Assembly: GCA_004431415.1 (NCBI GenBank)
Contig: QPMI01000396.1
Coordinates: forward strand, 49,105 to 113,104
Direction: 5' to 3'
Length of the DNA stretch: 64,000 bases
From: Cyanophora paradoxa CCMP329
Lineage: Eukaryota; Plantae; Glaucophyta
Program-made: the position numbers and the translations under genes
Notes under the pieces: generated by a model
What the model was told of the DNA's origin: nothing
The model's input: only the letters and a program-made list of their open reading frames with translations
Database searches by the model: none
Shown here: positions 6,977 through 29,890 of the stretch, in pieces
Layout of the letters: each line of letters begins with the position of its first letter
Position numbering within the stretch: the stretch's first letter is position 1

Positions 6977-7240
6977 CGTCCTGCTTCGCCTCCGCCTCCA
7001 CGTCGTCTTGTTGTTCCTCTTACTTGTCTGCTTCCTGTTATTTATCTTTCTCAATTTTGTCCTCCGCTTCTTAGTGATGTAATTCCTTCCGATATTGATG
7101 GTATTTCTAGCTCTGGCTCTTCTTCGTGTCAGTCATCCTCTGTCCCTAGATCTGCTCGATTTATCGTCTATTCTCGAAGTCGATCTGTCTCGAGCTCTCA
7201 GTCTGTGTCTTTTCTTTTTTATTGTCGATTTTGGCTCTTT
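6977..7240 (+). repeat. Direct repeat copy 1 (~260 bp) of the host sequence into which the PLV inserted
   Basis: CGTCCTGCTTCGCCTCCGCCTCC...TTGTCGATTTTGGCTCTTT recurs at 29407-29658 with a few substitutions and indels. Confidence 0.9.
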
Positions 7241-7509: not shown

Positions 7510-7515
7510 GTCGCC
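7510..7515 (+). repeat. Target-site duplication GTCGCC, left copy
   Basis: Identical hexamer directly abuts both element ends; 6 bp is typical of Polinton rve integrases. Confidence 0.92.
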
Positions 7516-9283: not shown

Positions 9284-9306
9284 TTTACATTTAAGTAATA
9301 TATAAT

Positions 9307-10161: not shown

Positions 10162-10199
10162 TGCTTGTTTTACTAAGAAGGAAAGAAAAATAATGTTCA

Positions 10200-10463
10200 C
10201 TACTCTTCTGTGACATTGTTATACTCAATGCCTTTCTTTACAGTTCCCCTTTGGAATGCCTGTGACACAATTGCTTCCTTTGAGGTTGGTATTTGAACTC
10301 CTGCCGAAATGCAAGATTGAATTTCTTTCTGAACAATCTCATCAATTGCAATTCTTGCCCTGTTGTGAACCACATTATCAATCCAATCCTGAACAGAAGC
10401 AGCACAGTATTCCATTCCCAACTTCTCAATATCAGATAGAACGACTTGGTATATATTTGACAT
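10200..10463 (-). CDS. Small helical protein resembling phage tail-fibre-associated hypothetical proteins
   Basis: 87 aa with QDWIDNVVHNRARIAIDEIV, recalled from aquatic phage proteins next to fibre genes; no search run. Confidence 0.7.
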   Translation of the reverse strand: MSNIYQVVLSDIEKLGMEYCAASVQDWIDNVVHNRARIAIDEIVQKEIQSCISAGVQIPTSKEAIVSQAFQRGTVKKGIEYNNVTEE

Positions 10464-10484
10464 CTCTACTTAATAGAGAGAAAA

Positions 10485-11504
10485 TTATGTGATACTTAGA
10501 AGTTCACCTGTGAAAAGTGTTCTACTTGAATAACTACCTGTGGAACCTGTGACAAGTGTTACATACTCACCAGCAGGAACATTGATAATTGCACTGAGAG
10601 TAAGAGGTTTGGTTGTGATAGTGGAATTAGCTTCTACTGAAATGTTAACTCCATTGGGTAAAAGATTATTTTTCAGAAAACTAAGACTTATTGCAGCACT
10701 TGTTGTTGAATTGGTATATGCTGTAAATCTATAATCACCTGCAACAGGAGCTGTAAACCTTCCATTAGTAACATCGAATGACCCTGTATTATTTATCAAA
10801 ACGGTTGTCCAATTGATCAGAGCGGCTGCACTTGTAGCAACATGAGTATATCCAAGTTGAACAGAAAATCGTGGCTGAGAAACATATTTTAAATAGCTTG
10901 AATTCAGAGTCAAACGATTGGCTTCCAGTGTTGCAAAAAGATCACTGTTACGTTTTAACAGCAGATTAACATCTGCTCCTGTATCTATTTCAGGAGTGAC
11001 CACCTTGGTTGATGCTGTTATTATTGATTCTGTGGAATTGGGAATACTAATTCCAGCATTTGCTGTTACCAATCCTGTAAATGTGCTTGTTCCTGTTATG
11101 CTTACTTGATTGGCTGTAAGGGTTCCATCAATCCTTGCCCCATCTCCAATATAAGCGCCTCCACTTCTTACTACAAGAGCTGAGTTATTGATGGTGTTGT
11201 CAAAGGTAACAATCTTTGGTGTGGTGAACCCTCCCACATCATCATAAATTGCTGAATCTGATACAATCTGACCTGATTGAACTTGGTTCTTGTTTGAGAC
11301 TATTAGACCTGTGGTTCTCACCTTGCCTGCATTTCGATCACATCGAATTTCTTTGCATCTGATCACAGAATGTTGAGAGAATGAATCGGCTCCTGTGGTC
11401 TCTGTGCAAATGAAACCTGGGGTAGCATCTGTTACTGTATGGTTGAGTTGATGCAATTTCGGCGCTGCATAACAGAAAACAGGAACAGCTATTTGTGTAG
11501 ACAT
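10485..11504 (-). CDS. PLV fibre-like protein, paralogue 2, C-terminal C1q-like domain
   Basis: EIRCDRNAGKVRTTGLIVSNKN...GGAYIGDG; C1q signature NNTGSFDVTNGRFTAPVAGDYRF...FTGELL. Confidence 0.85.
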   Translation of the reverse strand: MSTQIAVPVFCYAAPKLHQLNHTVTDATPGFICTETTGADSFSQHSVIRCKEIRCDRNAGKVRTTGLIVSNKNQVQSGQIVSDSAIYDDVGGFTTPKIVTFDNTINNSALVVRSGGAYIGDGARIDGTLTANQVSITGTSTFTGLVTANAGISIPNSTESIITASTKVVTPEIDTGADVNLLLKRNSDLFATLEANRLTLNSSYLKYVSQPRFSVQLGYTHVATSAAALINWTTVLINNTGSFDVTNGRFTAPVAGDYRFTAYTNSTTSAAISLSFLKNNLLPNGVNISVEANSTITTKPLTLSAIINVPAGEYVTLVTGSTGSYSSRTLFTGELLSIT

Positions 11505-11526
11505 TCTTTATATTATACAAACAAAA

Positions 11527-12591
11527 TTATATAGCACTTACCAGGTAAACCAACAAGATGTGATTGCTTGGAAAGTCAATACTACCTAACATACAGTAAA
11601 TTTGAAGACTGTCTCCCATGGTGAGGGTAATAAGAGCTTCGTAGCACATCTGATTCCTGCTTGATTGACTTGCATATGAAAGAATCTGATTTGTATTGTT
11701 TCCGTTTATTCTTAGTCCAATCTGGGTCAAGGAGGCAGTTGCAGTATTGTCTTCCGTAATTGTAAAATAGACCCTATAAACTCCTGAAACAGGGGCTGTA
11801 AATGTTGCTGGATACAGTTTGTCAAAATGACCCTCATTATTCACAAGATATGTTCCAACTGGAAAAGGAAGTGTTGGGGTGCCGGAACTAACACTTGTTC
11901 CAAAAATCTGAGCGTTTGCTTGTTGTCCTGAAATACACATTCTTGGGCAATAGCTGCGTTTAAGACCACTGTTTGTTGGAAATGTGATTGCTTTCAGATC
12001 TGTTATTGTCTTTTCGAGAGTGAAAATGATATCTCCGTTTCGTTTATAATTCACATTTGCATCTGTCCCATTATCCATCTCAGGTGCATTAACTCTTGTA
12101 GTAGCTATTCGAGTAACATAGTTAACATCTCCTGAGAGACCACCATTAAAGGTCATCAAACCTGTGAATGAACTTGTCCCATTCACATTCAATTGATTTG
12201 CTGTAACAGTTCCTGCTACATTTGTCCCATCTCCAATGTAGGCACCACCACTCTTCACCACAAGAGCAGAAGTATTGCTTGTGTTACCAAAAGTAATTAT
12301 CTGTGCTGTGGTGAATCCACCCACATTATTATACACTGCTGAATCGGGAACTACTTGTCCTGCTTGAACTTGATTTTTATTCGAGATAATAATTCCTGTG
12401 GTTCTTATCTTGCCTCCATTTCGATCACATCGAATCTCTTTGACTCTGAGTATATTATTCTCTGTGAAAGACGTATTGCTTGAAGCTTCAGTGCATATAT
12501 TCCCGGGTGTAGAGTCGACTACTTCATGAGAGGTGCTGTGTAGTGATTTCGCGGCAAGTTCATAGTTTGGGATTTCTAAAAGGGAGGTCAT
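11527..12591 (-). CDS. PLV fibre-like protein, paralogue 1, C-terminal C1q-like domain
   Basis: EIRCDRNGGKIRTTGIIISNKN...GGAYIGDG; NNEGHFD...FTAPVSGVYRVYF...LTMGDSLQIY; start set at ATG 12591. Confidence 0.85.
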   Translation of the reverse strand: MTSLLEIPNYELAAKSLHSTSHEVVDSTPGNICTEASSNTSFTENNILRVKEIRCDRNGGKIRTTGIIISNKNQVQAGQVVPDSAVYNNVGGFTTAQIITFGNTSNTSALVVKSGGAYIGDGTNVAGTVTANQLNVNGTSSFTGLMTFNGGLSGDVNYVTRIATTRVNAPEMDNGTDANVNYKRNGDIIFTLEKTITDLKAITFPTNSGLKRSYCPRMCISGQQANAQIFGTSVSSGTPTLPFPVGTYLVNNEGHFDKLYPATFTAPVSGVYRVYFTITEDNTATASLTQIGLRINGNNTNQILSYASQSSRNQMCYEALITLTMGDSLQIYCMLGSIDFPSNHILLVYLVSAI

Positions 12592-12610: not shown

Positions 12611-15600
12611 TTAAATTGCGACAGCAATGTAATGGATTGTTACAGTAATGCCTGGTCTGTCAAAAGAACTTAATGGAACTATTTCGAGCTCACACGTGAA
12701 ATAGCTACTGTAAACTTGTTTAAGCCTAACATACATGCGGTAGTAGTAGGCTGTCTCATTGTGTTGTATACCGGTTGTTACAATAGGAGGGTTAGCAAAG
12801 CTGGTGTTGAAATAAATAGTGAGATTAAACCTATGGTCAGGGTTTGCCCATAGATAAGGAGTAGTGTAAGCATACGTCCCTGCTTGAAGCTTTCCATTAA
12901 AATATGCATTGAATTGACTGGAAAGATCTGCCTCTGTAATACATCGACTGATGGTCGCATTATTTGAGGGGTTCATAGCATAGAAATTTCTTGCATAGGC
13001 ATTTCCACGAACAAGTAAGGTTTTATCAAAGTAATTCTGCGAATTGTGGAAGAACCATGTTTCTTCAAACATAGGTCCTGCTGGTTCTACAATCTGACCT
13101 GATCCTACATACATTGTGTTGTTGGCTCTGATGGTGTTGGCTGTAAAGGGATCAAGAGTTGGTCTATTGGTCAGGTCATTGTAGTTGCCCGAAAATAAAG
13201 CGGGTTTGTTATAGATATCTGTATTCCAATCATGAGTATGTGCAAAATCTGTAATATCTGCTTTGACATGAGTATGTGCAAAATCTGTAATCTCACTCTT
13301 TACATGGGTGTGTGCAAAATCTGTTATCTCTGATTTAACATGAGTGTGGGCGAAATCTGTTATCTGTGACTTTGTGTGAGTGTGTGCAAAATCTGTGATC
13401 TCAGATTTAAAATGAGTATGGGCGAAATTTGTAATATCTGCTCTGGTGTGGGTGTGAGCAAAATCTGTTATCTGTGCTTTTGTGTGAGTGTGTGCGAAAT
13501 CTGTGATCTCTGCTTTTGTGTGGGTATGTGCCCTGTTATTCAGATCAAGGAAGCTTCCCGAGAATGCTACTGGGTGCAGATTTGCAGCAGTAGGTTTGTT
13601 TAGAAGATCATTATAGTCTCCTGTGAAAGAGATGGTTTTCAGTTCACCCCTTCCTACATAATCAGAAGGTAGGTCAATCTTAATGGGCATAATAGCTGGA
13701 TCAATAGGAATCTCGTACTCAGCTCCTGGGTGAACCACAGGAAAGGTTTGATCACTTTCAGTGTGAACAAAAAAGTTGTCAGCAGTCACTGTTCCATCAA
13801 TAGTCCCTCCTGTCAAGGGCAGGTAATTCCCAGTCACAGCTAGACCTGCAATAACTAAAGCGAGCTCTGTTTGATCTACATAGTTTTGTGCTTGAAGGTA
13901 ATCCTCTGTGACCACTCTGGATATAGTGTCATTGTGAATGTTTTTTGCTGCTGCCCTTTGATTGATTTCTAAAAGTCCCTCCCCAACTCCACCATTATAG
14001 TTTGTTTTGATCCAAGATATTTCACATCTCTTGTAATCATCTCTAATTCCTATGAGAGCATTAGGTAACAATCTTTCTCGAGTGAATATTAATTTCGGTC
14101 TTGATGAATCTAAATCACTCACATCAGTAACATTAATTTGAATTGCTGCATCTTTATCATCATAGTTTGCTGGATCAGATGGAAGCGATAATATTAAACT
14201 ATCTGTCATTGGGATGTCATCAGCATAGTAACTGGTTAAATAGATACCTGGTTTGGTGTCCATCAACCCGAAGTTTCCGCCTGCTGCGATTATCTGCATC
14301 CGTGTAGGAGGTCTGATGAATAGCTCACCCTCCATTGTGGTTCCTGCATCAATTCCTTTACGATTCAGGTAAAATTCACTTAATCGTAATCTTTCTTCGA
14401 TGTTAATATTTGGTAGAGACTCACACCATTTATCCCATCATTCATAACATTACCTGCTGATGCAAAAGTAGGCTGTAAATCGATTTCGTCCCAATTATGC
14501 CTATGGTCTTCCGGCGGAAACTCAGGTGGAATTCCATCAATATCGCCCCAATCATGCCTGTGATCTTCAGGTGGATATTTCTCAGGTTTACCTAAGATCT
14601 CATCCCAGTCATGGTTGTGATCCTCTGGTGGATATCTCGCTGGTTTGTTGTTGATTTGTTCCCAGTCAAGGTACATCTCGAAAATCTCAGGTTGTAAACC
14701 ATCTGGCAATAATTCCTCATGGTGTTCATAAGGCTGCGCGTACTCAACAGCAGGAGGCTCGAGACCATCTGCTAAATATTCCTCATGGGTTCATAATTCT
14801 GTTCATACTCATACTCTTGTGGATCTAAACCGTCGGGTAAATACTCTTCCTCATTTGGGTCGTATTGATCATACTCATACTCTTGCGGGTCGAAACCGTC
14901 AGGTAAAAACTCTTCCTCATCTGGGACAAATTGGTAATCATCAAGCTCTAATATATCGATTTCAGGAGGTAAATACTGTTCATCTATTTGTTTTTTCGGT
15001 TCGAAGATAGGTTTATTGCGAACTTGCTCCCAACTGACAATATGTTGACCGAAAGGAACTGTCTCATCAGCAACTCGCTCTCGACCAGGTCCATCCGGGA
15101 TTGGCGGCTTTGGTAACCCTGGAAGAGGTGGTATAGGGACAATAGGTCCGAAGTAGTAGTTGAAAATGTTGATAACCTGCTCTTCGGTGCTAACCTTCTT
15201 ACCATCCTGATAAATATTAGTTCCATGAATATTTCTCCACTGCCTGGTGCGAAGCCCTAGGTCATATCTATCATGCAATGCTGGGAGCAGGTGCCTGTCA
15301 GCCTCAATCAAGATAGAGCCGAAGGTGCATCCAGGAATATCGAACCTGGTGGCTGGCTCGGTATCGATTTGATTTACATCAAACCCGAAAAGAAGATTTG
15401 CTTCTCGTGCATCGGTATATAGTAAATCCCAGGGGAACGGCTGAATTTGTGATGCAAGCACTGATATTGCAGCATCTTCGCCAAGGAGAATTCGCCCAGT
15501 GATGTGAGCTGCAGTTTTGTTTGCGACATCATTTGATTCATCAATTAGACGTAGAGCTGATGTGTGGACCCCTCTATCATTTTGTAGCCTAAATATCAAT

Positions 15601-15936: not shown

Positions 15937-17421
15937 ATGAAGGTCATTCTCTCACTATCAGGTGGAGGTGCTCGTGGCATAGTCATTGCCCGAATTCTAC
16001 AGCGGATTGAGGCGATTACTGGGAAAGCAATACCACAGCTGTTTGATTTCTTTGCAGGCACCTCAACAGGGGCGATAATAGCGGCCGGTTTGGCTATTCC
16101 ATCAACTCCAGGCTCTGTTCTCGCTTACCGATATTCTGCAGGTGATATCTTGAGTCTATATCAAACGAACCTGCCAACAATATTTGCAAATCCAAGATCA
16201 CTGACAAGCTTGCTCTCAGGCAGCCGCTATGATGCAAACCCTCTGGAGTCGGTGCTCACAGACGTTGCCCAGGACTACACAATTGCAGAATCGACAAAAG
16301 ATGTATTAATAACAGCGTTTGATACAGTTCGGATGCAGCCCGTAGTTTTTACGAAGGATGGGCCATATTCAAGCACGCTGATTCGTGATGCAGTGAGAGC
16401 ATCTTCTGCAGCGCCTACATTCTTTCCACCGAAGGTTCTAGGGGACAAAAACCTTGTTGACGGGGCAATTGCCTGTTTGAATAATCCCTCAGTTGCTGCA
16501 CTCAGCCACGCCAGTAAAATTTACGATGCAGAAGATCCAATTGTTCTTGTGAGCATTAGCTGTGGTGAAGTCCAAGCCAGTGAGCAATTGACTGCAGGCT
16601 TTTCGAATTCGGAGACGTCAGGCTGGGGCGCCCTGGGCTGGATCCTATCCCTCTCAGGCAGCCCAATCATTTCTATGCTAATGGCTGGTAGCGAGCTGGA
16701 ATCGCACTTCCAAATGCAGGAACTGCTTCCAGTTGATGCGGATAGGAATCTAACAAGATACTGGCGTTTAAGTGTTCCGCTGCCAGCTGCAGTCATGAGC
16801 AAGCTTGATGATGCCTCCCCATCGAATATTTCTTATTTGATTTCCACAACAGATTTATGGCTGAAACAAATCGAAATAAATGCTAAAATAAATGCACTCT
16901 GCAGCTTTCTACTGGCAAACTATGACCTACTGAACGATGAGAGACTAATCATATCGTCTACTTTAACAGTTGAGCCGCCATTTGATGTCAACTGGTTTAT
17001 AATTCCAGATGCAAACATCATAAGCAACGACTTTGAGGAATTGCACCCACCTTCTCATGTGCGACCCAACTCAACAGGGTTCCAAGGTGGCACTCTACCT
17101 AATCCCTGGATCAGAGTCGAATTTCCAAAGCCTTTTGAGCTACATCAAATCATTATGTATGGGCCAGCCTTTGCTGCCGGAGTCCTATTTAATTTCAGCA
17201 TTCTGACCAACTTAGGATATGTCCAAGATGGGAGGCTTTTTGAAAATACGGTCCTAGCAAATGTGCTTGCTGCAAACCCATCTATGACAGGCTTCGATCT
17301 AATGCATAGTGACTCGCATTTGTTCACCCCACAGGTATATAACTATGTGCAAATTATAACAAACGAATTTATAAATGTGAATGCATTCCGGCTTGATTTC
17401 CGGGGACGTTACATTAATTAG
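15937..17421 (+). CDS. Patatin-like phospholipase with C-terminal beta-rich extension
   Basis: GGGARG oxyanion motif, GTSTG nucleophile elbow, ASSAAPTFFPP, DGA catalytic Asp; extra ~160-aa tail with PWIRVEFPKPFELHQIIMYG (discoidin/galactose-binding-like). Confidence 0.93.
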   Translation: MKVILSLSGGGARGIVIARILQRIEAITGKAIPQLFDFFAGTSTGAIIAAGLAIPSTPGSVLAYRYSAGDILSLYQTNLPTIFANPRSLTSLLSGSRYDANPLESVLTDVAQDYTIAESTKDVLITAFDTVRMQPVVFTKDGPYSSTLIRDAVRASSAAPTFFPPKVLGDKNLVDGAIACLNNPSVAALSHASKIYDAEDPIVLVSISCGEVQASEQLTAGFSNSETSGWGALGWILSLSGSPIISMLMAGSELESHFQMQELLPVDADRNLTRYWRLSVPLPAAVMSKLDDASPSNISYLISTTDLWLKQIEINAKINALCSFLLANYDLLNDERLIISSTLTVEPPFDVNWFIIPDANIISNDFEELHPPSHVRPNSTGFQGGTLPNPWIRVEFPKPFELHQIIMYGPAFAAGVLFNFSILTNLGYVQDGRLFENTVLANVLAANPSMTGFDLMHSDSHLFTPQVYNYVQIITNEFINVNAFRLDFRGRYIN

Positions 17422-17682
17422 GCGGCGGCATGAATGCCCAGGAAATCAGAGAGAGTCCAAGACGTGTTGGAATAGTTCTGCCAGATTTATCTTTCTCCCA
17501 AAATGGTGCTCCATTACGCCCTCCCAGTCGCCTCTTAATGTAATTCTCTCTTCGCTGATACCAAGTTTGGGCGCCGCCGAGGCTGTGCGGAGCCAAGAAG
17601 GCGAAAGCCAAGATGGGCATTCTTGCCCTTCGGGCTCCTTGCCTTCGGCTTGTCTGCGACCCTTCGGCTTGTCTGCGACTTT

Positions 17683-18602
17683 TCAAATCAGTTTGAACTG
17701 GAGCTCCCCAGACCATGGCAATCCATTCAGTAATACATCATCACCATCTCTGTCTACAATGCGCAGTCGCAAGGAAGTCAGCACAAGACGCTCTTCGATG
17801 GGGATCCATTCGCTTTGATGATCCTGATTTATATAAACGAATTTGCCAACGTCCTGACTCATTTGAATTCGAGCAAGCCCGTAGTTGCACATTGTTTTGG
17901 CCCCACGGCGAAGCTTTGAAGCAAATGGTCGAAGCTCTTCACAGACTAGGAATAGATACTGGTCGCTGTTCATGTCAATTATCTTTGGAAATTCGACAGC
18001 ATAACCAAGTGGCTCACTCCGCATTCTTTCGGTGAAATCCACGCCATATTCAGGGTGTGAAGGTGTTACTGGAATGCCAGCAACCTCGAGATATCGCTCA
18101 GCTGCAGTTACTGATCTTTGTCCTCCTTCAAACACGATAGGAGACAGCTGGAGGGGCTCATTTCGGTTCAGCCCTAGCAGATTCGATAGAGCTTTGAACT
18201 GGCAGGTTACTGTGCAGGAACGGTTGCAATAGGCAGACATCTTCAGTGTCTCTGGGTCCCGAAACAATTTGAAATATGCTATTACGATTCCCCCAGTTCA
18301 AACTTAAACGATAGGCCAAAGTTGTAAAGATCTGTTTCGCCCATATTTGCAGTAGTAATTATACCAGGCTCAAAAACTGCCAGATTTTCCGTCCAAATGT
18401 TGGGGAAGGTGATCGAAAGATACTCATCTCTAATGCTCGTGTAAAGGCTGTTTGCGAACTCACACTGGGTAAGTCGAACAGCAACTGGATTGATTATAGG
18501 TTCATTTATTTCTAGCACAAAGTTTGCCTCTGAATCGATTGGCCTTCTGTCTCTACTGTCAAAGCTGAGCCTGGCGCAGCGTCGATGCTTGTCTTCGACC
18601 AT
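17683..18602 (-). CDS. Minor capsid (penton-like) protein A, one apparent frameshift at ~18292
   Basis: N-terminal FDSRDR...F-x-L...VAVRL...EFANSLY and C-terminal LRLRIVDRDGDDVLLNGLPWSGELQF, typical of PLV/Polinton single-jelly-roll mCP; frames join if G5 is read as G6. Confidence 0.8.
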
Positions 18603-18629
18603 TTTTATTCTCTAACTGATATAAAAAAG

Positions 18630-19585
18630 ATGCCGACGGACTACGTCTGCATTGCAAGCCACCAAGCGGATGAGCTGACATCCACCTCAAAATTTAAAGT
18701 AAGACTGCCTAAAGTTTATCAGGATGTAAAAGCCGTGCGCCTGGTATCTGCTGAGATCCCCAACACAATGAGCACAGTTGATGCACTCGATCCAGCAGAG
18801 GATTTAGTGTTTGACACGTATATATATTGGTGCAAATATGATCCTGCAAATGAGGGACCAGACCCACATCAGCCAGGTTTTGGAGCCTGGAATAACATTA
18901 CAATTCCACCTGGAAATTACGACGTCACCTCGCTTGTGACAAAGATAAACGAAAGGTTGACGGGGACTGGTATCACGTGCACGTATAATTCAGCAGTTAA
19001 ATCAATAGGGTTCACAGCTAGCTTCGAGTTCTTTATTGCTCTGATGTTGGCACCGAACCTGGGTGGCGGGAAATCAGAAACTACCAGGCTGTTGCTAGGG
19101 CTCAGCGAACTGCAAAGCTGCTAGGCTTGCGATCAATTCTACCGATTCGGTCTAAGGCTTTAACTGTCGATATTCAATATATAGAAGGCGCTTATGAACC
19201 CGATGTCACTCCCGATGATCATGTGCTACTTCGCATTCCTGAAATTGGTGACCTTGTCAGTATGCCCAATACTTCAATTCCTGGCTTTTTCTCAAAGCTC
19301 AGCATTCCCAGCGCCCTCCGTCCAGGCGAAACAGCCTACTATGATTCAACTGAAGCAACTCCTTTGTATAAGTATGTTTATTCAAAGCTGGACCTGTACT
19401 CTGTGACTATTGAGATATACGATTTTATGCAGCGAATCGCTGATTTAAATGGAGCTCCTGTGTCATTTATTCTCGAAATTCGTTATGGTCCTGACGAACC
19501 CAATGGTGATGTTGTTTACGAACTTGCAAAACTTCAGCTCCAGAAAAGGTCAAAGACATATCCTTGGATCAATTCGTCAAACTGA
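18630..19585 (+). CDS. Minor capsid (penton-like) protein B, one apparent frameshift at ~19033
   Basis: FKVRLP...VKAVRLVSAEIPNT, ITIPPGNY, AKLLG, VLLRIPEI, VTIEIYD...DLNGAPVSFILEI; frames join with one extra T. Confidence 0.85.
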
Positions 19586-19687
19586 GCTAAGCTCGCGGCA
19601 CGCAAGCGAAGTCGCAGACAAGCAGCTCGGCTGCGCCCCTTGGCGAAGCGGCAGAATTATTTTCTTTCACTGCAATTATATAATTCG

Positions 19688-21076
19688 ATGGATGTCACTC
19701 AAAATTTGCAGCGGCTCGGCCTCAAAGAGCTCCTGACAACTCCGCAGGAAGCGAAGGACTTCTTTATGAACAATGAGCTTATGTTGGGTCTAACGAGCCA
19801 AACCAAGCCTGTTCGTGTTGTTGTCAACCCAAGCAATGACTATGGAGACTGCTTCGGTAAACGAGTCACCTACTTCCTTCCCAGATACAACTTCCTTCAG
19901 GGGCTCGAACTCCAGTTTACCCTTCCCGAGCTGACAGCTTTTACTGGTGACACTGACCTGGTTCGCACTGGTTATTTGCGATCGGTTGGTGCTCTCGTAA
20001 AGCGAATCGAAATCAAATATGCTTCCTACAGCTACATTGTCCCCGAGGACTGGCTTGTTCACAGCGCTCTGATTTTCAATGATGATGCTCAGCTCAAAAA
20101 GAAATACCGGTCAGGTGGCTGGCTACATGGAACACCACCGCAGGGGACAAATCGCACTGGAGGTATTTTCAGTGTAAAAATCCCCTGTCCCTGGGAGGGT
20201 TCTGTGCTTCCGATTGGTGCTCTATCTGGCGAGGTTTCCGTCGAGGTTTGGTTCCGTGATCGTGCCCAGGGCTTCGTCGAAACCAGCTATGGTGGTAGGT
20301 TTGTAACAGAATATGCCATAGGCGGTGATGCTTCTAAAGAAGATGGCCTTGGTAGTGTTGGAGCCGCTGCTGCTTCCCCTGCAAACATCGGCCAGAATAT
20401 AACTCCCAATGTTCTCAGTGTCACCCCTGCCAATCCGGAGCTTTCGAATCCAAAGATTATTGCTCATTGCATCAACGTTGATGAGGCCACTTTTGCCCAG
20501 GTGATTGAGAAAGTCAAAACGTCTGGAATCGCAATTCCCGCTACCGATGTCGGCTGGGTTGATGCTGATTCAATTACTTATGCTGGTGCTGGTGCGCCCA
20601 CCCGAATTAATCTGTCTCAAATCAGTGGACTTTGTTACGGCCTATTCGTTAGCATTCGCAAGCAGCCAAACATGAACCAAACTGATGGAAAACACAGTGT
20701 CCTCAAAACCGAGGCTAATGCTCGCGATATTACTATTTCCTGCGAATTGAATGGACAGCGGCTTTATTCAAATGAGCCTGTTCCTCTATTGCAAGGTGCT
20801 GAACTCATCGCTGATGTCTTCAAGTGCTCCAATCTCGACGCACCCCTTAATCGGTATGTTCTGACTGGATTGCCATTTTGCATTAGTGGGGATAAATCGA
20901 TTCGAAATGCTGCTCAAACTGGTTTCGTAGATCTGACGAACTCCAGCAGCTGCTTCCTGAATATCATGAACCCTGCTGCGTATGATGCTAACAACAAGAT
21001 TTACGTCCAAATTCGCGCTCTCCTTCACACTGTCCTAATTGTTGATGCTGCGGGACTGCGGAAAGTTAATCTCTAG
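19688..21076 (+). CDS. Major capsid protein (double jelly-roll)
   Basis: ~460 aa; N-terminal FGKRVTYFLPRYNFLQGLELQFTLPEL matches the DJR-MCP pattern; LPIGAL..EVSVEVWF; lies between mCP and ATPase. Confidence 0.85.
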   Translation: MDVTQNLQRLGLKELLTTPQEAKDFFMNNELMLGLTSQTKPVRVVVNPSNDYGDCFGKRVTYFLPRYNFLQGLELQFTLPELTAFTGDTDLVRTGYLRSVGALVKRIEIKYASYSYIVPEDWLVHSALIFNDDAQLKKKYRSGGWLHGTPPQGTNRTGGIFSVKIPCPWEGSVLPIGALSGEVSVEVWFRDRAQGFVETSYGGRFVTEYAIGGDASKEDGLGSVGAAAASPANIGQNITPNVLSVTPANPELSNPKIIAHCINVDEATFAQVIEKVKTSGIAIPATDVGWVDADSITYAGAGAPTRINLSQISGLCYGLFVSIRKQPNMNQTDGKHSVLKTEANARDITISCELNGQRLYSNEPVPLLQGAELIADVFKCSNLDAPLNRYVLTGLPFCISGDKSIRNAAQTGFVDLTNSSSCFLNIMNPAAYDANNKIYVQIRALLHTVLIVDAAGLRKVNL

Positions 21077-21214
21077 TCACAGTGTCGCCAGACAAGCTGA
21101 CTCGCCTGCGGTCGCGGTTGTGTTTGCCTGCGAATATCAATAGTTGGGCGCAGCCGAGGCAGTGCGGAGCCAAGAAGGCTCCTTGCCTTCGGCTTGTCTG
21201 ACGACTATTTTTTG

Positions 21215-21961
21215 ATGGATGAGTCTCAAGAGCTCGCAAAGTTCCAGCCTAGCGATATGAGGGTCCCTTTTAAAGCCCTGTTTATATCGAAATCTAATAG
21301 TGGCAAATCGTTCTATTGCACAAAGCATCTGCTTCGACTGCTATATCCAAAGATTAATCGAGTGGTTGTGTTTACGGCCACCAAATTCAATGGTGAATAC
21401 GAAGCAATAACAAAAGAGCTTTACGATGATTTTCAACCTGCCATTGTTGCAGAAATCATTGATTCACAGCGCGCTCTAATCGAAAACAAAAAGAAAGCGC
21501 CGCAGATATTACTTGTATTGGACGATCTTGTTGCTGCATCTGAAACTGTTGATCTTCGAAACAGCAAGGTTGTTAATCGACTTTTTATGCAGTGCCGCCA
21601 TTTTTGCATTTCTACGATTTTAATGTCGCAAAAACTAACAGCTCTTAGTCAATCGATTCGTTCTAATGCTGATTATTGTTTTTTCTTTAGCTATTCTAAT
21701 CACACAGAGCTTGAGGCTATCTATCGAGAGTTTAGTCATCTCCCGAAAGACGAATTTATTGCTTTGTTCCAAACTTGGGCTCACGATTATCAGTGCCTAG
21801 TCCTTGATGGGACCAAATACGATACGGCCTGGTTCGTTGACAAGGCAGTTGAAGATAAGAGTTTTCGTTTTACGAAGTGGGTTAAGAATGAACCTGAAGA
21901 ACGTAAGAAAGAAGAATCACCTGTTATCTCTAAAAAGAAGCATTTTAAAATCTTAGCTTAA
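21215..21961 (+). CDS. A32/FtsK-HerA-family genome packaging ATPase
   Basis: Walker A variant SKSNSGKS, Walker B LLVLDD, RH motif, SQ, IRSNADY. Confidence 0.92.
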   Translation: MDESQELAKFQPSDMRVPFKALFISKSNSGKSFYCTKHLLRLLYPKINRVVVFTATKFNGEYEAITKELYDDFQPAIVAEIIDSQRALIENKKKAPQILLVLDDLVAASETVDLRNSKVVNRLFMQCRHFCISTILMSQKLTALSQSIRSNADYCFFFSYSNHTELEAIYREFSHLPKDEFIALFQTWAHDYQCLVLDGTKYDTAWFVDKAVEDKSFRFTKWVKNEPEERKKEESPVISKKKHFKILA

Positions 21962-21970
21962 TAAAATAAG

Positions 21971-22609
21971 ATGGGTCGCGGCATTCCAAAGAAGGGATAT
22001 CGTGAACGACGCAAGGTTAATATATCTGAGCCCAATGCTCCACTGATTGAAAGTGGGTCAACTGAAGGCGCAGCTGTTGCTGATCCTAGCGGGGAGCTTG
22101 CAAGCAACCCCAAACTAAACGCACCCGTAGCGAAAACAATTGCGTCGGCAGCAGCTAACGCAAGTGCGATTGACGATCGACAAAGCCAGGCTAAAACTGT
22201 TACTGAAATGCAGTCCGATATTGATGATGATGCTGCTAGAATTATCCAAGCAATGGCATCTGAACCACGTTATTCAGGGCCAAAAATCAAGACAGCAACA
22301 GTATCAAAGAGTCAGATCGAGGAACTAACAGCTAAATTGCGAGATCTTGAGGCTCGATCAGCTAATATCGAATCGTATGTAAAAGACAAGCAAGAAAGAG
22401 CTAAGATCCGTGAGATGCTCCGTAGCGAGATGTTTAAACATAGACCCATGGATGTACCAGATTTACGCTTTCTGAAAAACGAAAAAGAGAAGGCTTCACA
22501 AGCTCTTGATGATGCAGCTGTAAAGCCAGCTACACCCAATGTTTCTGAAGCCAATTCAACGAGCTCACAGATTAAGGGAGCGATGGGTGGGAGAAGGATT
22601 CGTCTGTGA
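21971..22609 (+). CDS. PLV hypothetical protein (212 aa), basic N-terminus and coiled coil
   Basis: ATG ORF 9 bp after the ATPase stop; MGRGIPKKGYRERRK; heptad-like segment. Confidence 0.7.
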   Translation: MGRGIPKKGYRERRKVNISEPNAPLIESGSTEGAAVADPSGELASNPKLNAPVAKTIASAAANASAIDDRQSQAKTVTEMQSDIDDDAARIIQAMASEPRYSGPKIKTATVSKSQIEELTAKLRDLEARSANIESYVKDKQERAKIREMLRSEMFKHRPMDVPDLRFLKNEKEKASQALDDAAVKPATPNVSEANSTSSQIKGAMGGRRIRL

Positions 22610-23183
22610 CACATCGATCAACAGTATTTGCATCCACACACTTGGAACATCCACATTTGTGTTTCATTTCATCCATTTTCGCTAATACCCAGACATGCCT
22701 TCCATTTTTCATGATTTTCTTTAGATTTGGCACCCAATACCACACGATAAATCTGAACTTCAGCCACGGCGTAGATGGATTGCACTGGTTACAGTTCCAA
22801 ACTACTTTTTCACTGTATTGCATCAGCTCTTGCTGAGGTATCCAACTCGTAAATTCATTGCACTTCGCACACTTCAAACGTGCTTCTCGGACAATTGAAA
22901 TCTTATCAAAGCATCCGTATTCCTGCTTCTCTCTCGTTTCCCCTGCATATGAGGTTATAATCTTGTCAAACTGCTTTTCAAAACATTCGTGACACTTGTT
23001 GTTATTTCGATTCCACATTGCTTCATTTTCACAGACATCATTGCAATCTCTGCAAAGAATAGAGCGAACACGTCTGCGCACCTCACAAACTTCCTCATCA
23101 CTAGACTCTGTGGCCTCCCTATAATCTGAAGTGCTAAAGAGACCTCTTGGAGCAAGTGTGCCGAAATAGTTGTGTCCTCCCAT
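22572..23183 (-). CDS. PLV Cys-rich hypothetical protein (putative Zn-binding)
   Basis: Five CxxC pairs (CRDC, CHEC, CAKC, CNQC, CSKC) in 203 aa. Confidence 0.65.
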   Translation of the reverse strand: MGGHNYFGTLAPRGLFSTSDYREATESSDEEVCEVRRRVRSILCRDCNDVCENEAMWNRNNNKCHECFEKQFDKIITSYAGETREKQEYGCFDKISIVREARLKCAKCNEFTSWIPQQELMQYSEKVVWNCNQCNPSTPWLKFRFIVWYWVPNLKKIMKNGRHVWVLAKMDEMKHKCGCSKCVDANTVDRCVTDESFSHPSLP

Positions 23184-23242
23184 TGTCTTTCACTTTTTAC
23201 AATATCGGATTGATATTTCTTTAAGACTTGCAAACGCATTGC

Positions 23243-23521
23243 CTAATCGAAATCAGGCAAATCTGTTAGATCCTCCACAGTAGGTCTTCTTTGCTGTTTT
23301 GCTCGATCAATCCTTTCCTGAACTACCGCTGGTTCTTCTAATTGACATATCTCAAAAGCGCGCTGCAATTCACGTTTGTCATACTCTCGCAGATGCGGCA
23401 AAGACAATAACCATTCAGCATATTTTGGGTCGCTAAAAACTACTTTAAGATGAGTTTCACCTTTATATTTTCCAAATCGAATTGTTCCTGCGGCGCAGCG
23501 ACGCTGCTTGTCTGCGGGCAT
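23243..23521 (-). CDS. Small protein with FGKYKG...Y-x-x-WL domain (DUF3820/ExoX C-terminal-like)
   Basis: IRFGKYKGETHLKVVFSDPKYAEWLL; start uncertain, ATG 23521 chosen. Confidence 0.7.
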   Translation of the reverse strand: MPADKQRRCAAGTIRFGKYKGETHLKVVFSDPKYAEWLLSLPHLREYDKRELQRAFEICQLEEPAVVQERIDRAKQQRRPTVEDLTDLPDFD

Positions 23522-23630
23522 TATTTGAATCATATCTCGGATTTTATGTTCGGAATTTAACGCAACACAAACCTGCGATTTATGCCATAAAAAGATTTCG
23601 TACCTTGTTTGTGACGAGAAAACCAAAGAA

Positions 23631-23906
23631 ATGGATGTTGAATCATCAACTAAACAGCGTGGTCGCAAACCAATTGTTGTTACCCCTGAAATTGCTGCTG
23701 CACGAAAGGCAAAGCGTGCAGAGAGCCATCGCCGTCGTTACAATGAAGATCCGGAATTTCGCCGACGACACATAGAAACCAGCTCAAGATACCAGCAGAA
23801 CAACAGCGAGAATCATTTAGAGGCCAATCGCCGCTATCGCAATCGAATCTACGAAAAGTTAGCACTGCTAGAGTCCCTCCAACAATGTGTTGTTATAGCT
23901 CTTTGA
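23631..23906 (+). CDS. Small basic helical protein, putative DNA-binding
   Basis: KQRGRKP followed by an Arg-rich helix (RRRYNEDPEFRRRH). Confidence 0.65.
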   Translation: MDVESSTKQRGRKPIVVTPEIAAARKAKRAESHRRRYNEDPEFRRRHIETSSRYQQNNSENHLEANRRYRNRIYEKLALLESLQQCVVIAL

Positions 23907-25028
23907 CTAGCCTTCTGGTCTTTGTTCTCTCTAATATTCCACCAGGGTTTAACTTGACAGTTCCAGCTGTCGCAAGTTGCTTTTGAAGGCGAAGCAGCTT
24001 CTTATTTTTTTCTATGTCCACTCGATCTAAATTCTCTCGCATCAGATTTAGCTCCTTCTTTCTGCGCTGCTGTGACCGCTGTGCTGCATTTCCCGCACGA
24101 CGTTCCTCTGAATCTACTGGGACCTTTAAAAGTTGCTGGTAGGTCACTGGTGTATCCGATCCAGCGAGTTTAAATCTTAGAAGGGGTCCAAAACCCCAAT
24201 CGACTCAATTCGAAATACTTCTTTCGAGAAGGTTGGCTTTGTCGATTTATCGAAGGTTCTCCTGGTTAGCTTAACTCGAACTAGGTCTCCTACTTTAAAT
24301 TCGACCTCCTTCAGGTAGTGTTGCTGCTCGTAGATCTCTCGCTGATAATCGTTGCGCGCGATTGTCTCCTTCGGATTCTCTGCTGCAGCGTTTGGCGATG
24401 TACCAATCGACCTATGCTCTGACGAATTATAATTGCGCAAGAAAGCGGGCAGCTTGTCGATGTACCTATCCGTGTCATATGCCTCCATATACCGTGCAAT
24501 AACTCGCTTCAAAGTTCCATTAAATCTTTCTATTTTGCCGTTTGCTTGTGGTCGATGCGCTTCCACAGCATTGTGCTTAATTCCCTCAGCTTCTAACAAA
24601 CTACCAGCTGAAGCTTTAAACTCCTGATCTGTCTGAATAATATCCGGCTTGGCTGGAAAACTATCTATGAGTTTCCGTAGTGTTGAAAGGAGTGTACTTT
24701 CGCTCTTGTTCTTCATTGGAATGCTGTAGGCTTTCCGAGTCACTACGTCCACTGCGTTCATTATAAAGTGAATACCGCGGTTTGTTCTAGCGTACGGAGT
24801 CACGTCGATTAGGTCCACCTCGTAGTATTTCTCTGCTTTGTCGTATGTTATACTTGTGAATGGTTTCTCTTTTTGCGGCCTCGCAAATCTTTGCGCTGTC
24901 GATAATTTCTCCAGCACTTCTCTAACCCTGGAAACTGGTATTTTCAACTTCTTGGCAATACGTGTGGCAGACTGAAGCCCTATTTCTGGATCATAGTATG
25001 CCTCCTGAATTTTGGCTGATGTACTCAT
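23893..25028 (-). CDS. Retroviral-type (rve, DDE) integrase, one apparent frameshift at ~24195
   Basis: YYDP, VDLID, QTDQEF, GKIERFNGTLK, YNSSEHRSIGTSP, FKVGDLVRV; C-terminus continues RFKL...YQQLLKV after adding one G. Confidence 0.93.
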
Positions 25029-28000
25029 GAGGAACTGTGCTGTAATAGTCATCCGAAATTATCTTTCGCTTTGTGTATTCCGTCTTATTTAATACTCTGC
25101 TGAATGGAATCTGAATGATTGAACTAAAACCTATCCCCTCCTCGCGTTGCTTTCCATTCGGTTTGAAGACACGAGATAGTTTAGACTCTATTTTGCACTC
25201 CGGCTGATACCGGCTCTCAAGCATCTGCTTGAACGCTTCCAAAGCAACCCGAGAATGGAGGTGCCCCTTCCTCATCTCCGGATCATTCGAAAGCCAGTTC
25301 TCTTCGATCCAGCTTTTTGGTATTCCTTTGGCACGCACATGCACGTCCGATTCACCGTTCGCTTTCACGTACCGACAACAGTACACCTTGGGCCCAACGA
25401 AATACGCCTCCACAATGTGTCCCTGGATATCGTAATCTAGTTTTCCAAGTTCGCTCTCGCAGATCACCCTGTTCGCCTCCTCTTCGCCCATTCCTCCACA
25501 GAGTAGGGCCGCTTCATGCAATCAGTCACCAGCTCTGCAAATTTCCTGTGCACAACAAGAGAGTCCGTGTCCGTGTAAAACGGCATGGCTTCGATGTCTT
25601 TATAAGAGTTCATCTTTACTAGGAACCTGTCCATTATCTCGCGACTGTAGGACAGAATAAATGCTCCAATAAAACAGGGCTTCGACACACAAGCATCACG
25701 TTTGCTCTCAGGTACTTCATATGTCACATACATCCGTGTTTCACTCTCAATTTCGATGTCTGTAATCGTAGACGTCCGCTGTAGCTCCTTAAATCGGCGG
25801 TAATTAGAAACTAGCTCTGTTGTTTCGATCACAGGCCTCTGGGCAAATTTTCCGTAAAGACCATTTAATTGAATCTTTGCTGTTGCGTACTGAGCTGTGC
25901 CCTTCCTTGAACGAGCTTTCATACAGTATAACTTCTCGATGTAATCTTTAAACATTCTCTCCTTGCCTTCAAATAAATACACCTCGTGAACTTCTGTTAT
26001 TTCCACCCAAGCGCTATCGCCCTGTAGATATCAACCGATGTATACATCTCGCGCTCGATCGGTTTCAGGTTCGACCAGCCCAAATTCGACTCGTGACGAG
26101 GTAGCGGAGAAAGCACAAGGTCCTGAGGAATTTTCGCACTGATGCTCGCAATGAACAGTTGCTCCATTTTTCGACTTAACATGAACTTTCTAAAACGTTC
26201 TAATGCCTCCGGTTCATTGATTAGCTTAAATTTACCTGTAGGAAACTGGTTAAAGTACATAGCGGTTGGATATAGAGAGACCACATCCAGATCTACCAAG
26301 TAATCATCTGGACCCTTCGAGACAAACTTGCGTTTGAATGGTAAACAGCGACCTCCGTAAATCGCCCTGCGAAACACCTGATCTTCACTATACTTCGGAA
26401 GTTGCAGCTCTGTCTTCAACAGCTGCCGGTAAATCTGAAAAGCCATTGATGAAGCTGTAAGTGTTTGTTTGGAATTCACATTTATTCCAAATAGATCAAA
26501 GCTCGTACTCGAATATTTCATGTATAGCTCCGTCATCGATCGCACGTCGGCTCTAAGATATTCTCCCCATTCCTCCTTGTGTGTCTCAACGTCTGCCCAC
26601 GTCTTGATCTTGCGATGGTCAAAGTCTCCTTTGATTGTCGTGCAGCCGTAGTCCTTTCCAGCCTGTTTTAGTGAACCTTGAATATGTAGGCACGGGTCAA
26701 AACTCGTCAACTCTCCTCCTGCTGACGTCTTCCATTTCATACTCTTAATCTTGCCCGAGGAGCGCATGACGTTCACCTGGCTTTCTGGCCGATTCTCAAT
26801 CAGCCATCGGTATATGAATATCAGATCAAAACCAGCACCGTTGTAAAATACTACTGTGGTCTTCTCTGCCCAAGCATCCAGCCATTGCATGAATTGATTT
26901 AATGTTTCAGGACCGTAAAACATCTTGGTTCCTACAATTTCGCCCTTGCATATTATGTCTGTGTCAACAGCATAAGGAACGTGGGTCTTGCCATCACAAG
27001 GAAATGTTTCAAAGTCAGCCCCTATCACGCTATCCATCGCTGTAAATTCACTCTCCTTTTCGCAAGGAGTAATCTTTCTTCCAATAACACCTTTGTTTCT
27101 GATGGCGGCAACGCATTTGTTTGTGTGATCTTCAATTGGATTGTAGGCGCAACGACATCTAGCACAAAACTGACAGGTTAGCTTGTGTCTTTCCAGTTCG
27201 AACTGCATTTTCCCGCAGGCACTACACTTCTCCATCTCAGTCGTTCTTTTATCCTTAATCAGGTAGCAGTGCACATCGACTATACAAAGGTGAGCACGTT
27301 TTTCAAATCCTAGATCGGTCGCAAAAGCAGCTTAAACTTTCCTTGCGAAAACTCAAAAACGCTGGTGTCTATTCTGTAAAAAGCGCTCAGCTTATTAATC
27401 GTTGGCACATCAACTGATATCATTCCTCGCCGCAGTCCTAGCTGTGTTCTAATCCCTCCGTAGTCCAGTCTCTGAAGTTGCTTGTAAATTCGATCAAGGC
27501 TTATTCTTCCAGGGTTTAGCTTCACATATTCAAAACACTCAAGCACACAGTTGTCTTCTGGTGAAATCGGACAGTAGATCTTATTCATGGTCAGGGCTTT
27601 GCCATTGAATGGGAGTTTCGGTACGTTTCCAAGTGCGCCTGCAGCGTTCTCTGCAATGAGCACCTCTATTTTCACTACTGGCCAAAGGTCGTTGTCTTCA
27701 TATGGCTGCTGCGCTAGCATCCATTGTTCCATCTTTTCAGCCAGATTTGACAAGAGCGACTGCATTGTGCCCTCTTCGATTGTTGCTAGTTGAGTGCGAT
27801 ACATGCGAAAGTTATCGAAATGAAACCGAATTAGGACGCTTGATCCTATTTTCTCTGGAATTCGCAGCTCTCTCAGAAACTCAATCGTGATCTCTTTAAC
27901 CCGCTCAGGTATTGGAGTCGGATCAATATCCAAAATATCCTTGGTAAATAACAACCCGGATATGCATAGTGAGTATAATTTAACACGGTATCACCTCGAC

Positions 28001-28313
28001 CTGTCTCGCGAAATAAATTCGAGATCCCATACTCTACAATTTCATCAAACTCTCGCGTGGCTTCAATTCGAGCATTGCGTTCGTTCTCAAAATGACTTGT
28101 TATCCATGACTGGTACAAAGGGCGCTGCGGCCGGTTCGTCTGTCTAAGTCTAAGCAATGTTGAAAGATTAGCTCGAAGATTTTGTGTGTGGGTTCCCCTC
28201 TGTGGGTCTGCTAGTCGCATCAGTGTGTTCAAATATGTTCCGTTAATGTACCTAAGATTGTGTAGCTCCTGCGCTAGACTCCGAATTTCAGCTCTCAGAT
28301 TGTTCCTGTCCAT
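24991..28313 (-). CDS. polB: Protein-primed family B DNA polymerase with N-terminal terminal-protein/vOTU-like region; five ORFs separated by four apparent frameshifts
   Basis: ExoI ADFET, ExoII YNGAGFD, ExoIII YLRADV, YGGRC, motif A DVVSLYPTAM, motif B KIQLNGLYGKFAQ, motif C YTDTDS, PKVY, KGI. Confidence 0.94.
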
Positions 28314-28451
28314 TATGAATAGGTCTCTACAATATTGGATGGCCGAAAACTTTTTGGGATTTAATCGCAGACAATCTCTGATTGCTAGTATGTATGCGAG
28401 AAACCTTTAAGCCACATAACTGGCGTCCGCAAAGTCATCGACTCCTCTCCA

Positions 28452-29011
28452 GAGGCCGCACCAGAGCGCTCTTGGGACACGAAGTGCTTCAATGTACTCA
28501 TCATTATCGCCTAGATAGAGCTAAACGCTTTTCCTCTGGTTGCTTCAATGTTCTCATCATTTCGCCTAAAATTAACCTAAACGTGCTTCCTCTGTTAGCT
28601 TCATCGTACTCATCTATATCGCCTAAAATTAACCTAAACGTGCTTCCTCTGTTAGCTTCGATGTACACTTCATTATCGCCTAAAATTAACCTAAACGTGT
28701 TTCCTCTGATAGCTTCATTGTACACATTAATATCGTCTAGACTATTCTGCCACGTTGCTCTGCAGACCGCGCTCATGGGGGCAGCGCTCCTCTTCGCCTA
28801 TTCTTGTTGTCTCCTCTGCCTTGTATAGTCGTCAGATATTGCTAGGCTTCGACCTAGGGAATCGGATAGTAGACGTAGCTGGATCGGTGGGGTAGACGTA
28901 TATGGTGAAATAACTAATGAAACGCTGGAGGTATACACTTGAAACGCATGGAATCGGGGGCTATGGAGCGAAGCGGAATTGCCCGGGTGTGAGGTCCATG
29001 CGTATACAACA
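28452..29011 (-). repeat. Right terminal inverted repeat (560 bp)
   Basis: GAGGCCGCACC...CCATGCGTATACAACA; the same 90-aa ORF translation appears at 7751..8023(+) and 28504..28776(-). Confidence 0.96.
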
Positions 29012-29406: not shown

Positions 29407-29658
29407 CGTCCTGCTTCGCCTCCGCCTCCGCGTCGTCTTGTTGTTCCTCTTACTTGTCTGCTTCCTGTTATTTATCTTTCTCAAATTTGTCCTCCGCTTC
29501 TTAGTGATGTCATTCCTTCCGATATTGATGGTATCTCTAGCTCTGGCTCTTCTTCGTGTCAGTCATCCTCTGTCCCTAGATCTGCTCGATTTATCGTCTC
29601 TTCTCGATCTGTCTCGCGCTCCGTGTCTTTTCTTTTTTATTGTCGATTTTGGCTCTTT
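29407..29658 (+). repeat. Direct repeat copy 2
   Basis: Matches 6977-7240. Confidence 0.9.
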
Positions 29659-29664
29659 GTCTTA

Positions 29665-29890
29665 TCTTTCTTCGTGCTCTTGTCTTAGTTATTTTGCTTT
29701 TTTGTCTTTATGCCCCCTGGGCAGCCCCCGCAGTGCTGGTGTCTAGAGACTGTGGCCGGTAATTTACCAAAAAAATATCTTTCTTCGTGCTCTTTTCTTG
29801 GTTATTTTGGCTTTTTTGTCTTTATGCCCCCTGGGCAGCCCCCGCAGTGCTGGTGTCTAGAGACTGTGGCCGGTAATTCACCAAAAACAA
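29665..29890 (+). repeat. Two tandem copies of a ~113-bp unit
   Basis: TCTTTCTTCGTGCTCTT...ATGCCCCCTGGGCAGCCCCCGCAGTGCTGGTGTCTAGAGACTGTGGCCGGTAATT occurs twice. Confidence 0.88.

Follow-up and report, generated by a model that had tools for sequence, protein, structure and literature searches.

Why a short, GC-rich sequence should recur at the borders of unrelated viral genes is the question raised by the locus described here. The stretch analysed (the window) comprises 64,000 nt of Cyanophora paradoxa CCMP329 (contig QPMI01000396.1, positions 49,105 – 113,104, forward strand) and carries an integrated Polinton-like virus (PLV), in which seven good copies and one partial copy of a two-arm motif with the core AGACAAGC were found. 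An initial annotation of the window interpreted the motif as a cis-regulatory system. In the current study, its copies were found to be present in some sister proviruses and absent from others, to occur in nested long and short forms, with near-identical long forms at different sites, and to hold no fixed position relative to genes. An obligatory promoter, terminator or packaging system is unlikely, because the motif is missing in about half of the sisters, lies in both orientations, and skips the fibre and replication genes. The reading favoured here, with moderate confidence, is that the motif represents a family of small GC-rich two-arm repeats, i.e. a spreading, non-coding insertion that is tolerated in spacers or in frame after an ATG.

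Copies and anatomy of the motif

All copies reported in the initial annotation are present, and the one at nt 23492 is two bases longer than first described. The loci are as follows (coordinates are those of the window).

17569 – 17679, minus strand: copy 1, long form of about 110 nt, starting 3 nt past the stop of open reading frame (ORF) 17683 – 18240
18573 – 18599, minus strand: copy 2, 27 nt, immediately following the start codon (ATG) of a likely minor capsid gene, in frame
19611 – 19637, plus strand: copy 3, 27 nt, in the spacer ahead of the major capsid gene
21084 – 21110, plus strand: copy 4, 27 nt, 7 nt past the capsid stop, bounded by 5-nt direct repeats (21084 – 21088 and 21111 – 21115)
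21146 – 21205, minus strand: copy 5, long form of about 60 nt with an inner stem-loop, antisense, 9 nt ahead of the ATPase ATG
23492 – 23518, minus strand: copy 6, 27 nt, joined in frame to the ATG of ORF 23243 – 23521
28364 – 28384, plus strand: copy 7, partial and diverged, antisense, upstream of ORF 27873 – 28313; a 5' arm followed by a 5-bp hairpin

Two weakly complementary arms, 13 nt long on the 5' side and 8 nt on the 3' side, flank a variable middle; as a terminal inverted repeat these arms are imperfect, with 6 of 7 bases matching. The span is 27 nt in copies 2, 3, 4 and 6, about 60 nt in copy 5, and about 110 nt in copy 1. The 5' arms of copy 1 (17667 – 17679 and 17648 – 17660, both minus strand) are a perfect 19-nt tandem pair with one common 3' arm ending near nt 17570, and its expanded inner hairpin is an extra stem within a hairpin of the copy 5 type. 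Copies 1 and 5 are 94% identical over 36 nt, and 100% over 24 nt, despite lying 3.6 kb apart in unrelated flanks. The two copies inside genes (2 and 6) encode MVEDKHRRCA and MPADKQRRCA, in frame after the ATG, which bears out the similar N-termini noted initially. In ORF 23243 – 23521 an ExoX-like C domain begins at residue 16 and there is no later start ahead of it, so the ten-residue tag of this protein is probably translated.

The core occurs eight times in the 21.5-kb element (seven times in motif copies, once in isolation at nt 22384), whereas Markov simulations of the element (100 runs each) gave means of 1.08 and 0.94 and maxima of 6 and 3. The two-arm pattern has six matches in the element against simulation means of 0.07 – 0.10 (maximum 1), a comparison that is generous as the pattern was derived from the same data. 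In 42.5 kb of flanking host DNA, a small sample, there are no cores and no good motif copy, and the two-arm pattern has two matches with degenerate arms; the proposed specificity for the element is in agreement with this. The suggested tie to gene boundaries also held, as 8 of 9 cores (eight exact, and that of the partial copy) are no more than 75 nt from a boundary, a zone that makes up 20% of the element (P ~2e-5). The motif is confirmed as a real feature of the provirus. When the window was scanned with a covariance model trained on the seven copies, nothing beyond these reached significance, the highest-scoring new locus having 10.9 bits (E 1.3); copy 7 (5' arm at 28364 – 28376, plus strand), which belongs to the training set, scored 18.8 bits. 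Two further resemblances are not significant: a stretch near nt 21111 – 21139 that might be a decayed copy in reverse (9.4 bits, E 3.1), and 12 identical nt shared by the terminal repeat of the virus and copy 5 at its 5' end (E 0.18).

Compared with shuffled sequences, copy 5 folds with z-scores of -3.6 and -4.4 as RNA and -2.9 as DNA; the values for copy 1 are -1.5 and -3.0 (RNA) and -1.4 and -1.8 (DNA). The label 'hairpin' is backed for the long forms only, which fold well on one strand at least and in which the hairpins are stacked. As DNA, the spacers of copies 1, 5 and 3 provide the three 60-nt windows of the element with the highest folding stability. The invariance of the core suggests that it is recognised by a protein or enzyme, of which none was found. 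Rfam gave no match at gathering score in the window, and one chance match (E 2.3) in nt 17400 – 23700, away from the motif; no tRNA was found in the window. Enrichment of DNA mini-hairpins with a GAA loop was considered and is unsupported (34 words in the element, 229 in host DNA). The integrase target duplication (nt 7510 – 7515) has the same six letters as the start of copy 4 (21084 – 21089), a single instance that is probably due to chance.

Filled, short and empty sites in sister proviruses

Sister sequences were obtained as contigs (short unitigs) of public DNA runs from one organism. The stretch is contained in 20 listed runs, of which four were compared over nt 17000 – 24200 and two of these over nt 21030 – 21290, an interval on which two other runs, presumed to be RNA, gave nothing, a result without bearing on expression. 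Joints, loose ends and letter differences over the former interval are taken from among those listed, and the loose ends over the latter are 11 of 13. The virus is multicopy and diverse in these contigs, and most joints recur in two to four runs. Contigs from independent runs reproduce copies 4 and 5 with no differences, and copy 2 with one difference over 225 nt, so these copies are not assembly artefacts. Joints and loose ends together show that sisters lacking copies 1, 3, 4 or 5 exist.

At site 1, sisters either lack the copy or have other sequence in its place, as seen from joint 17412>17708 and a loose end past nt 17567. In one allele the patatin gene and the gene that follows are separated by hardly any spacer, and a deep contig runs on past nt 17567 with 183 unlike letters. 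Copy 2 is present in a deep sister contig (run X5, record 24), and a diverged sister is a net 26 nt shorter over nt 18538 – 18778, which would fit the absence of this copy. Copy 3 is skipped by joints 19586>19639 (3 of 4 runs), 19592>19655 (4 of 4) and 19510>19655 (3 of 4), the allele ends at this site being ragged. Copy 4 accounts for about 42% of the depth at the end of the capsid gene (1794/4279 in run X3, 678/1588 in X2). It is skipped along with its surrounding spacer by joint 21076>21128, another allele lacks exactly its 27 nt between the 5-nt direct repeats (loose end before nt 21111), and in one allele the whole spacer between the capsid and ATPase genes is cut to about 20 nt. At site 6, sisters differ at the first two bases of the copy, and some lack the whole gene (joint 22590>23573).

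Site 5 is the most informative as to the direction of change. Three alleles are empty (joints 21110, 21139 and 21145 >21207, with depths of 904, 537 and 427 in X3), and their flanks differ, yet all rejoin at base 21207 with the same last letter. Contigs that match the window over 116 nt upstream of the site continue either empty (depth 427) or long (260 – 304). Since diverged empty alleles share one junction, and flanks identical to the window go empty or long, the empty state is likely old and the filled state recent. There is no clear duplication between filled and empty versions of the site. A short allele departs at nt 21162. The long form is also found in other flanks, as in record 4 of X2, where it has 4 differences in 76 nt and unlike letters at either side (44 and 28); the left flank of this contig was not found in the window. 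At two further flanks, the inner hairpin occurs alone, without the arms. Insertion is presumably the direction in which sites usually change.

Where sister alleles are empty, their spacers approach a compact type. In the window, ten motif-free spacers are 9 – 109 nt long with a G+C fraction of 0.09 – 0.34, and three motif spacers are 102 – 261 nt long with 0.53 – 0.57.

Downstream of copy 1 there is a minus-strand open frame (nt 17414 – 17567), which many sisters continue with a different upstream sequence; in the window allele, a small gene may have been deprived of its 5' part at the place now occupied by copy 1. The remnant was presumed to resemble a small giant-virus family, but this has no Pfam support.

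Spreading repeat or regulatory signal

Gene borders were counted over the 19 likely genes of the element. A sense copy is near four starts (offsets +8, +8, -72 and -125) and an antisense copy near four; only three stops have any copy nearby, in each case sense and 8 – 30 nt past the stop codon. Copies in either orientation are found, next to starts as well as stops, and none accompanies the fibre genes of the left arm. Neither the placement of PLV promoters (sense, at a fixed distance, at a large share of genes) nor that of the mimivirus-type palindrome, at most gene 3' ends, was seen. The likelier shared start signal is an AT-rich 25-nt leader (AT at least 0.72), which precedes 11 of the 19 starts compared with 6.5% of background windows. 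With these counts, and with sisters that lack copies 1, 3, 4 and 5, the initially proposed cis-regulatory system is not sustained as one that the genes need. Copies do lie just upstream of the major capsid and ATPase genes, as had been pointed out, but copy 5 is antisense to the latter. The small basic protein of ORF 23631 – 23906, put forward as a reader of the motif, has no Pfam, PHROG or sequence homologue and shows no link to the motif. In the Atlas it comes closest to a viral cluster (score 0.90, 155 shared features), 14% of whose members carry an AT-hook; this is no more than a lead, and one that would point to AT-rich DNA and not to a GC-rich word. Neither this protein nor that of the copy 6 gene has a homologue at near lengths.

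The case for a small spreading repeat is made by the present, short and absent alleles, the empty junction shared by diverged lineages, the near-identical long forms at unrelated sites, and the modular shuffling. Strand-displacement replication is established for the class of protein-primed DNA polymerase B (pPolB), to which the viral polymerase belongs. In the mechanism envisaged, such replication would expose long single strands on which the long form folds, and copying of the repeat would proceed through recombination, or through template switching, among viral genomes that replicate together. The inner hairpin may grow and shrink by slippage, copies may be lost between short direct repeats, and selection would leave those insertions that are harmless in spacers or in frame after an ATG. 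A bolder version has a 27-base selfish element parasitising the population of a 21-kb virus, recognised through its core, homing into empty junctions, tagging proteins with ten residues after the ATG, and perhaps retuning expression of the capsid block. We consider this version unlikely; if true, the element would be among the smallest conceivable, and sister proviruses in one alga would differ in regulatory wiring.

Several observations weigh against a spreading repeat. No consistent target-site duplication was found, the 5-nt direct repeats being confined to copy 4, and searches of 28 ORFs against Pfam and of 14 against PHROGs revealed neither an HUH/RAYT transposase nor a homing nuclease. 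Shuffled sequences fold as well as the short copies do (z -1.6 to +1.05), and covariation over the seven copies is weak (reached by 26 of 500 shuffles). One motif-free spacer (nt 23907 – 24176) is long and relatively GC-rich (270 nt, 0.46). Unitig depth is a rough weight and not a copy number, several joints have sides of less than 30 letters, and the empty alleles could belong to dead copies. Six of the seven loci fall within the capsid/ATPase block (17.5 – 23.5 kb), five of the seven copies are sense to the adjacent gene, the span of 27 nt is constant in four short copies, and two of these (2 and 6) have an identical ATG offset. Finally, copy 4 is common to two lineages whose capsid genes are distinguished at the third position of four successive codons, which fits selection on function as well as gene conversion; the end filter of the contig comparison may conceal differences within the motif itself.

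The last of these points, from the clustering around the capsid and ATPase genes and the identical post-ATG offsets to the sharing of copy 4 by synonymously diverged lineages, are also what would favour a facultative cis-regulatory site of the capsid/packaging block (a protein-binding DNA or RNA element, or a processing signal), selected in active lineages and subject to site turnover. The invariant core, the sense placement just past three stop codons and the retention of copy 2 in a deep sister contig point the same way, and promoter motifs and 3' hairpin signals are known in related viruses, according to the portions of the sources available (10.1101/2022.07.28.501842; PMC4402537). We nevertheless hold this explanation to be somewhat doubtful. 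More than half of the depth at the capsid end is without copy 4 and alleles with the whole spacer emptied occur; 15 of the 19 starts have no sense copy and 16 of the 19 stops no copy at all; the AT-rich leader is what the majority of starts share instead; two copies are antisense and two lie inside coding sequence; and the early-promoter word AAAATTGA is absent from the element. The regulatory and spreading-repeat readings can coexist, by analogy with yeast GC42, in which constraint and mobility are combined in the part of the account available (PMC4478555).

A passive origin, in which an ancestral GC-rich word was scattered by slippage and micro-homology repair in fast-changing spacers, with neither self-spread nor function, would account for the local clustering, the perfect tandem duplication at copy 1, the loss of copy 4 between direct repeats, the ragged allele ends at site 3, and the lack of a mobilising gene among the scanned ORFs of the element. 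It fails to explain why the same two arms are found in the same order at seven unrelated junctions, in both orientations and with a variable middle, or why site 5 has a clean common junction, and we regard it as improbable. More improbable still is that a host miniature inverted-repeat transposable element (MITE), or other host repeat, landed in the provirus. The arms do form an imperfect terminal inverted repeat, and MITE-like repeats are known in giant viruses, as the accessible text of one study describes (10.1101/2023.03.08.530996). These ends are a mere 7 bp and imperfect, however, and there is no target duplication; the core is missing from the small host sample; the summed depth of the long form, taken by itself, is about 950 – 1020 in X3, below that of the capsid gene (4279); and the new flanks among the loose ends listed (11 of 13) are AT-rich or viral, unlike the GC-rich host DNA.

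Small repeats that come and go are already known from mitochondria, bacteria and giant viruses, their mode of spread being unsettled, and the comparisons that follow are limited to the parts of each source that were available. Yeast mitochondrial GC clusters are short GC-rich palindromic repeats in AT-rich spacers, with a constrained sequence and an unresolved mechanism, and for GC42 present, subunit, absent, merged and shuffled forms are described (PMC4478555). The motif shares with GC42 its presence or absence at homologous sites, the subunit-only forms, and the merging and shuffling (PMC4478555), and it shows the traits of a GC cluster in being a dispersed GC-rich repeat of AT-rich spacers with presence/absence and subunit forms. 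It differs in having no consistent duplication, about 8 copies per 21-kb nuclear provirus, a variable middle, and a short form that hardly folds. Mitochondrial hairpin elements of sponges and Allomyces are likewise intergenic and fast-spreading, with full and reduced forms, those of Allomyces also being without flanking duplications (PMC2800124); they are organellar, whereas the replicon here is a DNA virus, and no kinship in sequence would be expected. The bacterial REP families and Rickettsia palindromic elements (RPE) are similar in being palindromic, 20 – 40 nt long, with a conserved unpaired end, and mostly intergenic but sometimes in frame in genes; REP inverted pairs resemble copies 4 and 5, and the CGTC families, which lack a transposase of their own, frequently have CCA at the end, a trait of copies 1, 2 and 5 as well (PMC3733652). 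Unlike these, the motif has no terminal GTAG/CGTC tag and no 8 – 9 bp stem beginning with AT (PMC3733652), and no RAYT (HUH) transposase was detected among the element ORFs scanned.

Among viruses, the M1/M2 repeats of pithovirus and Submariner of pandoravirus are also palindromic, present or absent at syntenic sites, and proposed to spread by recombination (10.1101/2023.03.08.530996). They are about 140 nt long with inverted ends of 47 – 54 bp and putative TA duplications, and make up as much as 18% of a giant genome (10.1101/2023.03.08.530996), as against 27 – 110 nt and 7-bp imperfect ends in a 21-kb element. Virophage and PLV promoter motifs, and the mimivirus hairpin rule, are comparable as short border signals of small viruses or their giant helpers, the former being AT-rich and upstream of genes and the mimivirus palindromes lying at transcript 3' ends (10.1101/2022.07.28.501842; PMC4402537). 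The motif is instead GC-rich, in both orientations, at a minority of genes, and polymorphic among sisters. Palindromes reported in Halocafeteria virophages and PLVs are terminal (10.64898/2026.07.28.741278), and the motif is internal.

Searches of viral, metagenome, prokaryote and phage collections did not recover the motif as a family, nor did they recover any relative of the element. Exact long-form words had no match in viral contigs or among phage records, and one match each in metagenomes and GTDB genomes, both without arms. A single match to the two-arm pattern was seen in each of 51 viral contigs, but these were treated as chance, none encoding a relative of the 13 element proteins tested. 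The published literature gave no description of such a repeat family inside a PLV, most subscription papers and bioRxiv supplements being outside the coverage. Since a single algal genome harbours many sister proviruses, in which the same sites may be filled, short or empty, the direction of change, any homing bias and the effect on expression can be tested in a culturable model organism. A caution to be drawn is that enrichment at viral gene borders need not mean a promoter.

The integrated virus and its surroundings

The 21.5-kb island is an integrated PLV, with the terminal inverted repeats, target duplication, double jelly-roll capsid, A32 ATPase and pPolB/integrase that characterise this group. 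Its main features are given below.

7516 – 29011, no strand assigned: integrated PLV, 21,496 bp, delimited by terminal inverted repeats and target duplication, GC profile, gene content and capsid fold
7516 – 8075, plus strand: left terminal inverted repeat, 560 bp, perfect
28452 – 29011, minus strand: right terminal inverted repeat, 560 bp, perfect
19688 – 21076, plus strand: major capsid protein, 462 aa, 64% identity to a Cyanophora paradoxa protein, double jelly-roll fold
21215 – 21961, plus strand: A32-like packaging ATPase (Pfam Pox_A32, E 9.9e-9)
23631 – 23906, plus strand: small basic protein, the initially proposed binder, no family or homologue, weak AT-hook lead
24177 – 25052, minus strand: rve integrase (Pfam rve_3, E 2.2e-8)
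24991 – 27235, minus strand: pPolB, fragmented in the assembly (Pfam DNA_pol_B_2 in two pieces)

Identical 6 bases flank the provirus at both ends (a 6-bp target duplication), and it forms a low-GC island (about 0.38 – 0.48, mostly 0.6 – 0.8 in host DNA). Besides pPolB (in pieces), the rve integrase and the A32 ATPase, Pfam identifies a patatin lipase and fibre proteins with C1q and PTR/H-lectin domains. The capsid model is of modest quality (pLDDT 53.5), with Foldseek matches to iridovirus and PBCV-1 capsids at E ~1e-13. The sole close capsid homologue is labelled C. paradoxa, and an element of this species with a PTR-PTR-H_lectin protein, like the one at nt 12611 – 14335, has been reported in the available part of a previous study (PMC12220804); this element family is therefore already catalogued in Cyanophora. 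Polinton-type sequences have also been noted in C. paradoxa data, in a source likewise available in part (PMC8502044). Viral and metagenome contigs scanned with the capsid, a capsid alignment and the ATPase gave no confirmed related locus.

Two genes are presumably minor capsid genes, with a weak DUF5901 match (E 0.015), and their N-termini show no pairwise similarity. In this assembly the likely minor capsid genes (at 18240 – 18290 and 19064 – 19262) and pPolB (24991 – 28313) are split. Since most sister contigs differ by single-base indels at the two capsid-gene breaks, the splits are assembly errors or copy-specific damage. An accessory block (nt 22591 – 23572), with a cysteine-rich and an ExoX-like ORF, is of low depth, and sisters without all or most of it are indicated by joints 22590>23573 and 22609>23334. 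Each terminal repeat includes a 57-bp tandem array of 4.5 copies (7788 – 8041 and 28486 – 28739) with an open 90-aa frame pointing inward. Four left-arm genes (8453 – 12591) have a related N-terminal segment in common, two of them with C1q heads, which suggests a modular fibre gene family.

Outside the provirus, direct repeats (6977 – 7240 and 29407 – 29658; 93% over 264 nt) bracket it in T-rich DNA of about 50% GC, and a 114-bp tandem lies beside it (29663 – 29887); the provirus may have inserted into another mobile element. The host DNA at nt 61360 – 64000 is a tandem array of 480-bp units (5.5 copies, 99% alike) in which neither tRNAs nor Rfam families were recognised. Within each unit, a U-rich Sm-site-like word lies about 40 nt downstream of a splice-donor-like word, a pattern that we take to be that of spliced-leader and snRNA genes, and the array is possibly an undescribed small-RNA gene array.

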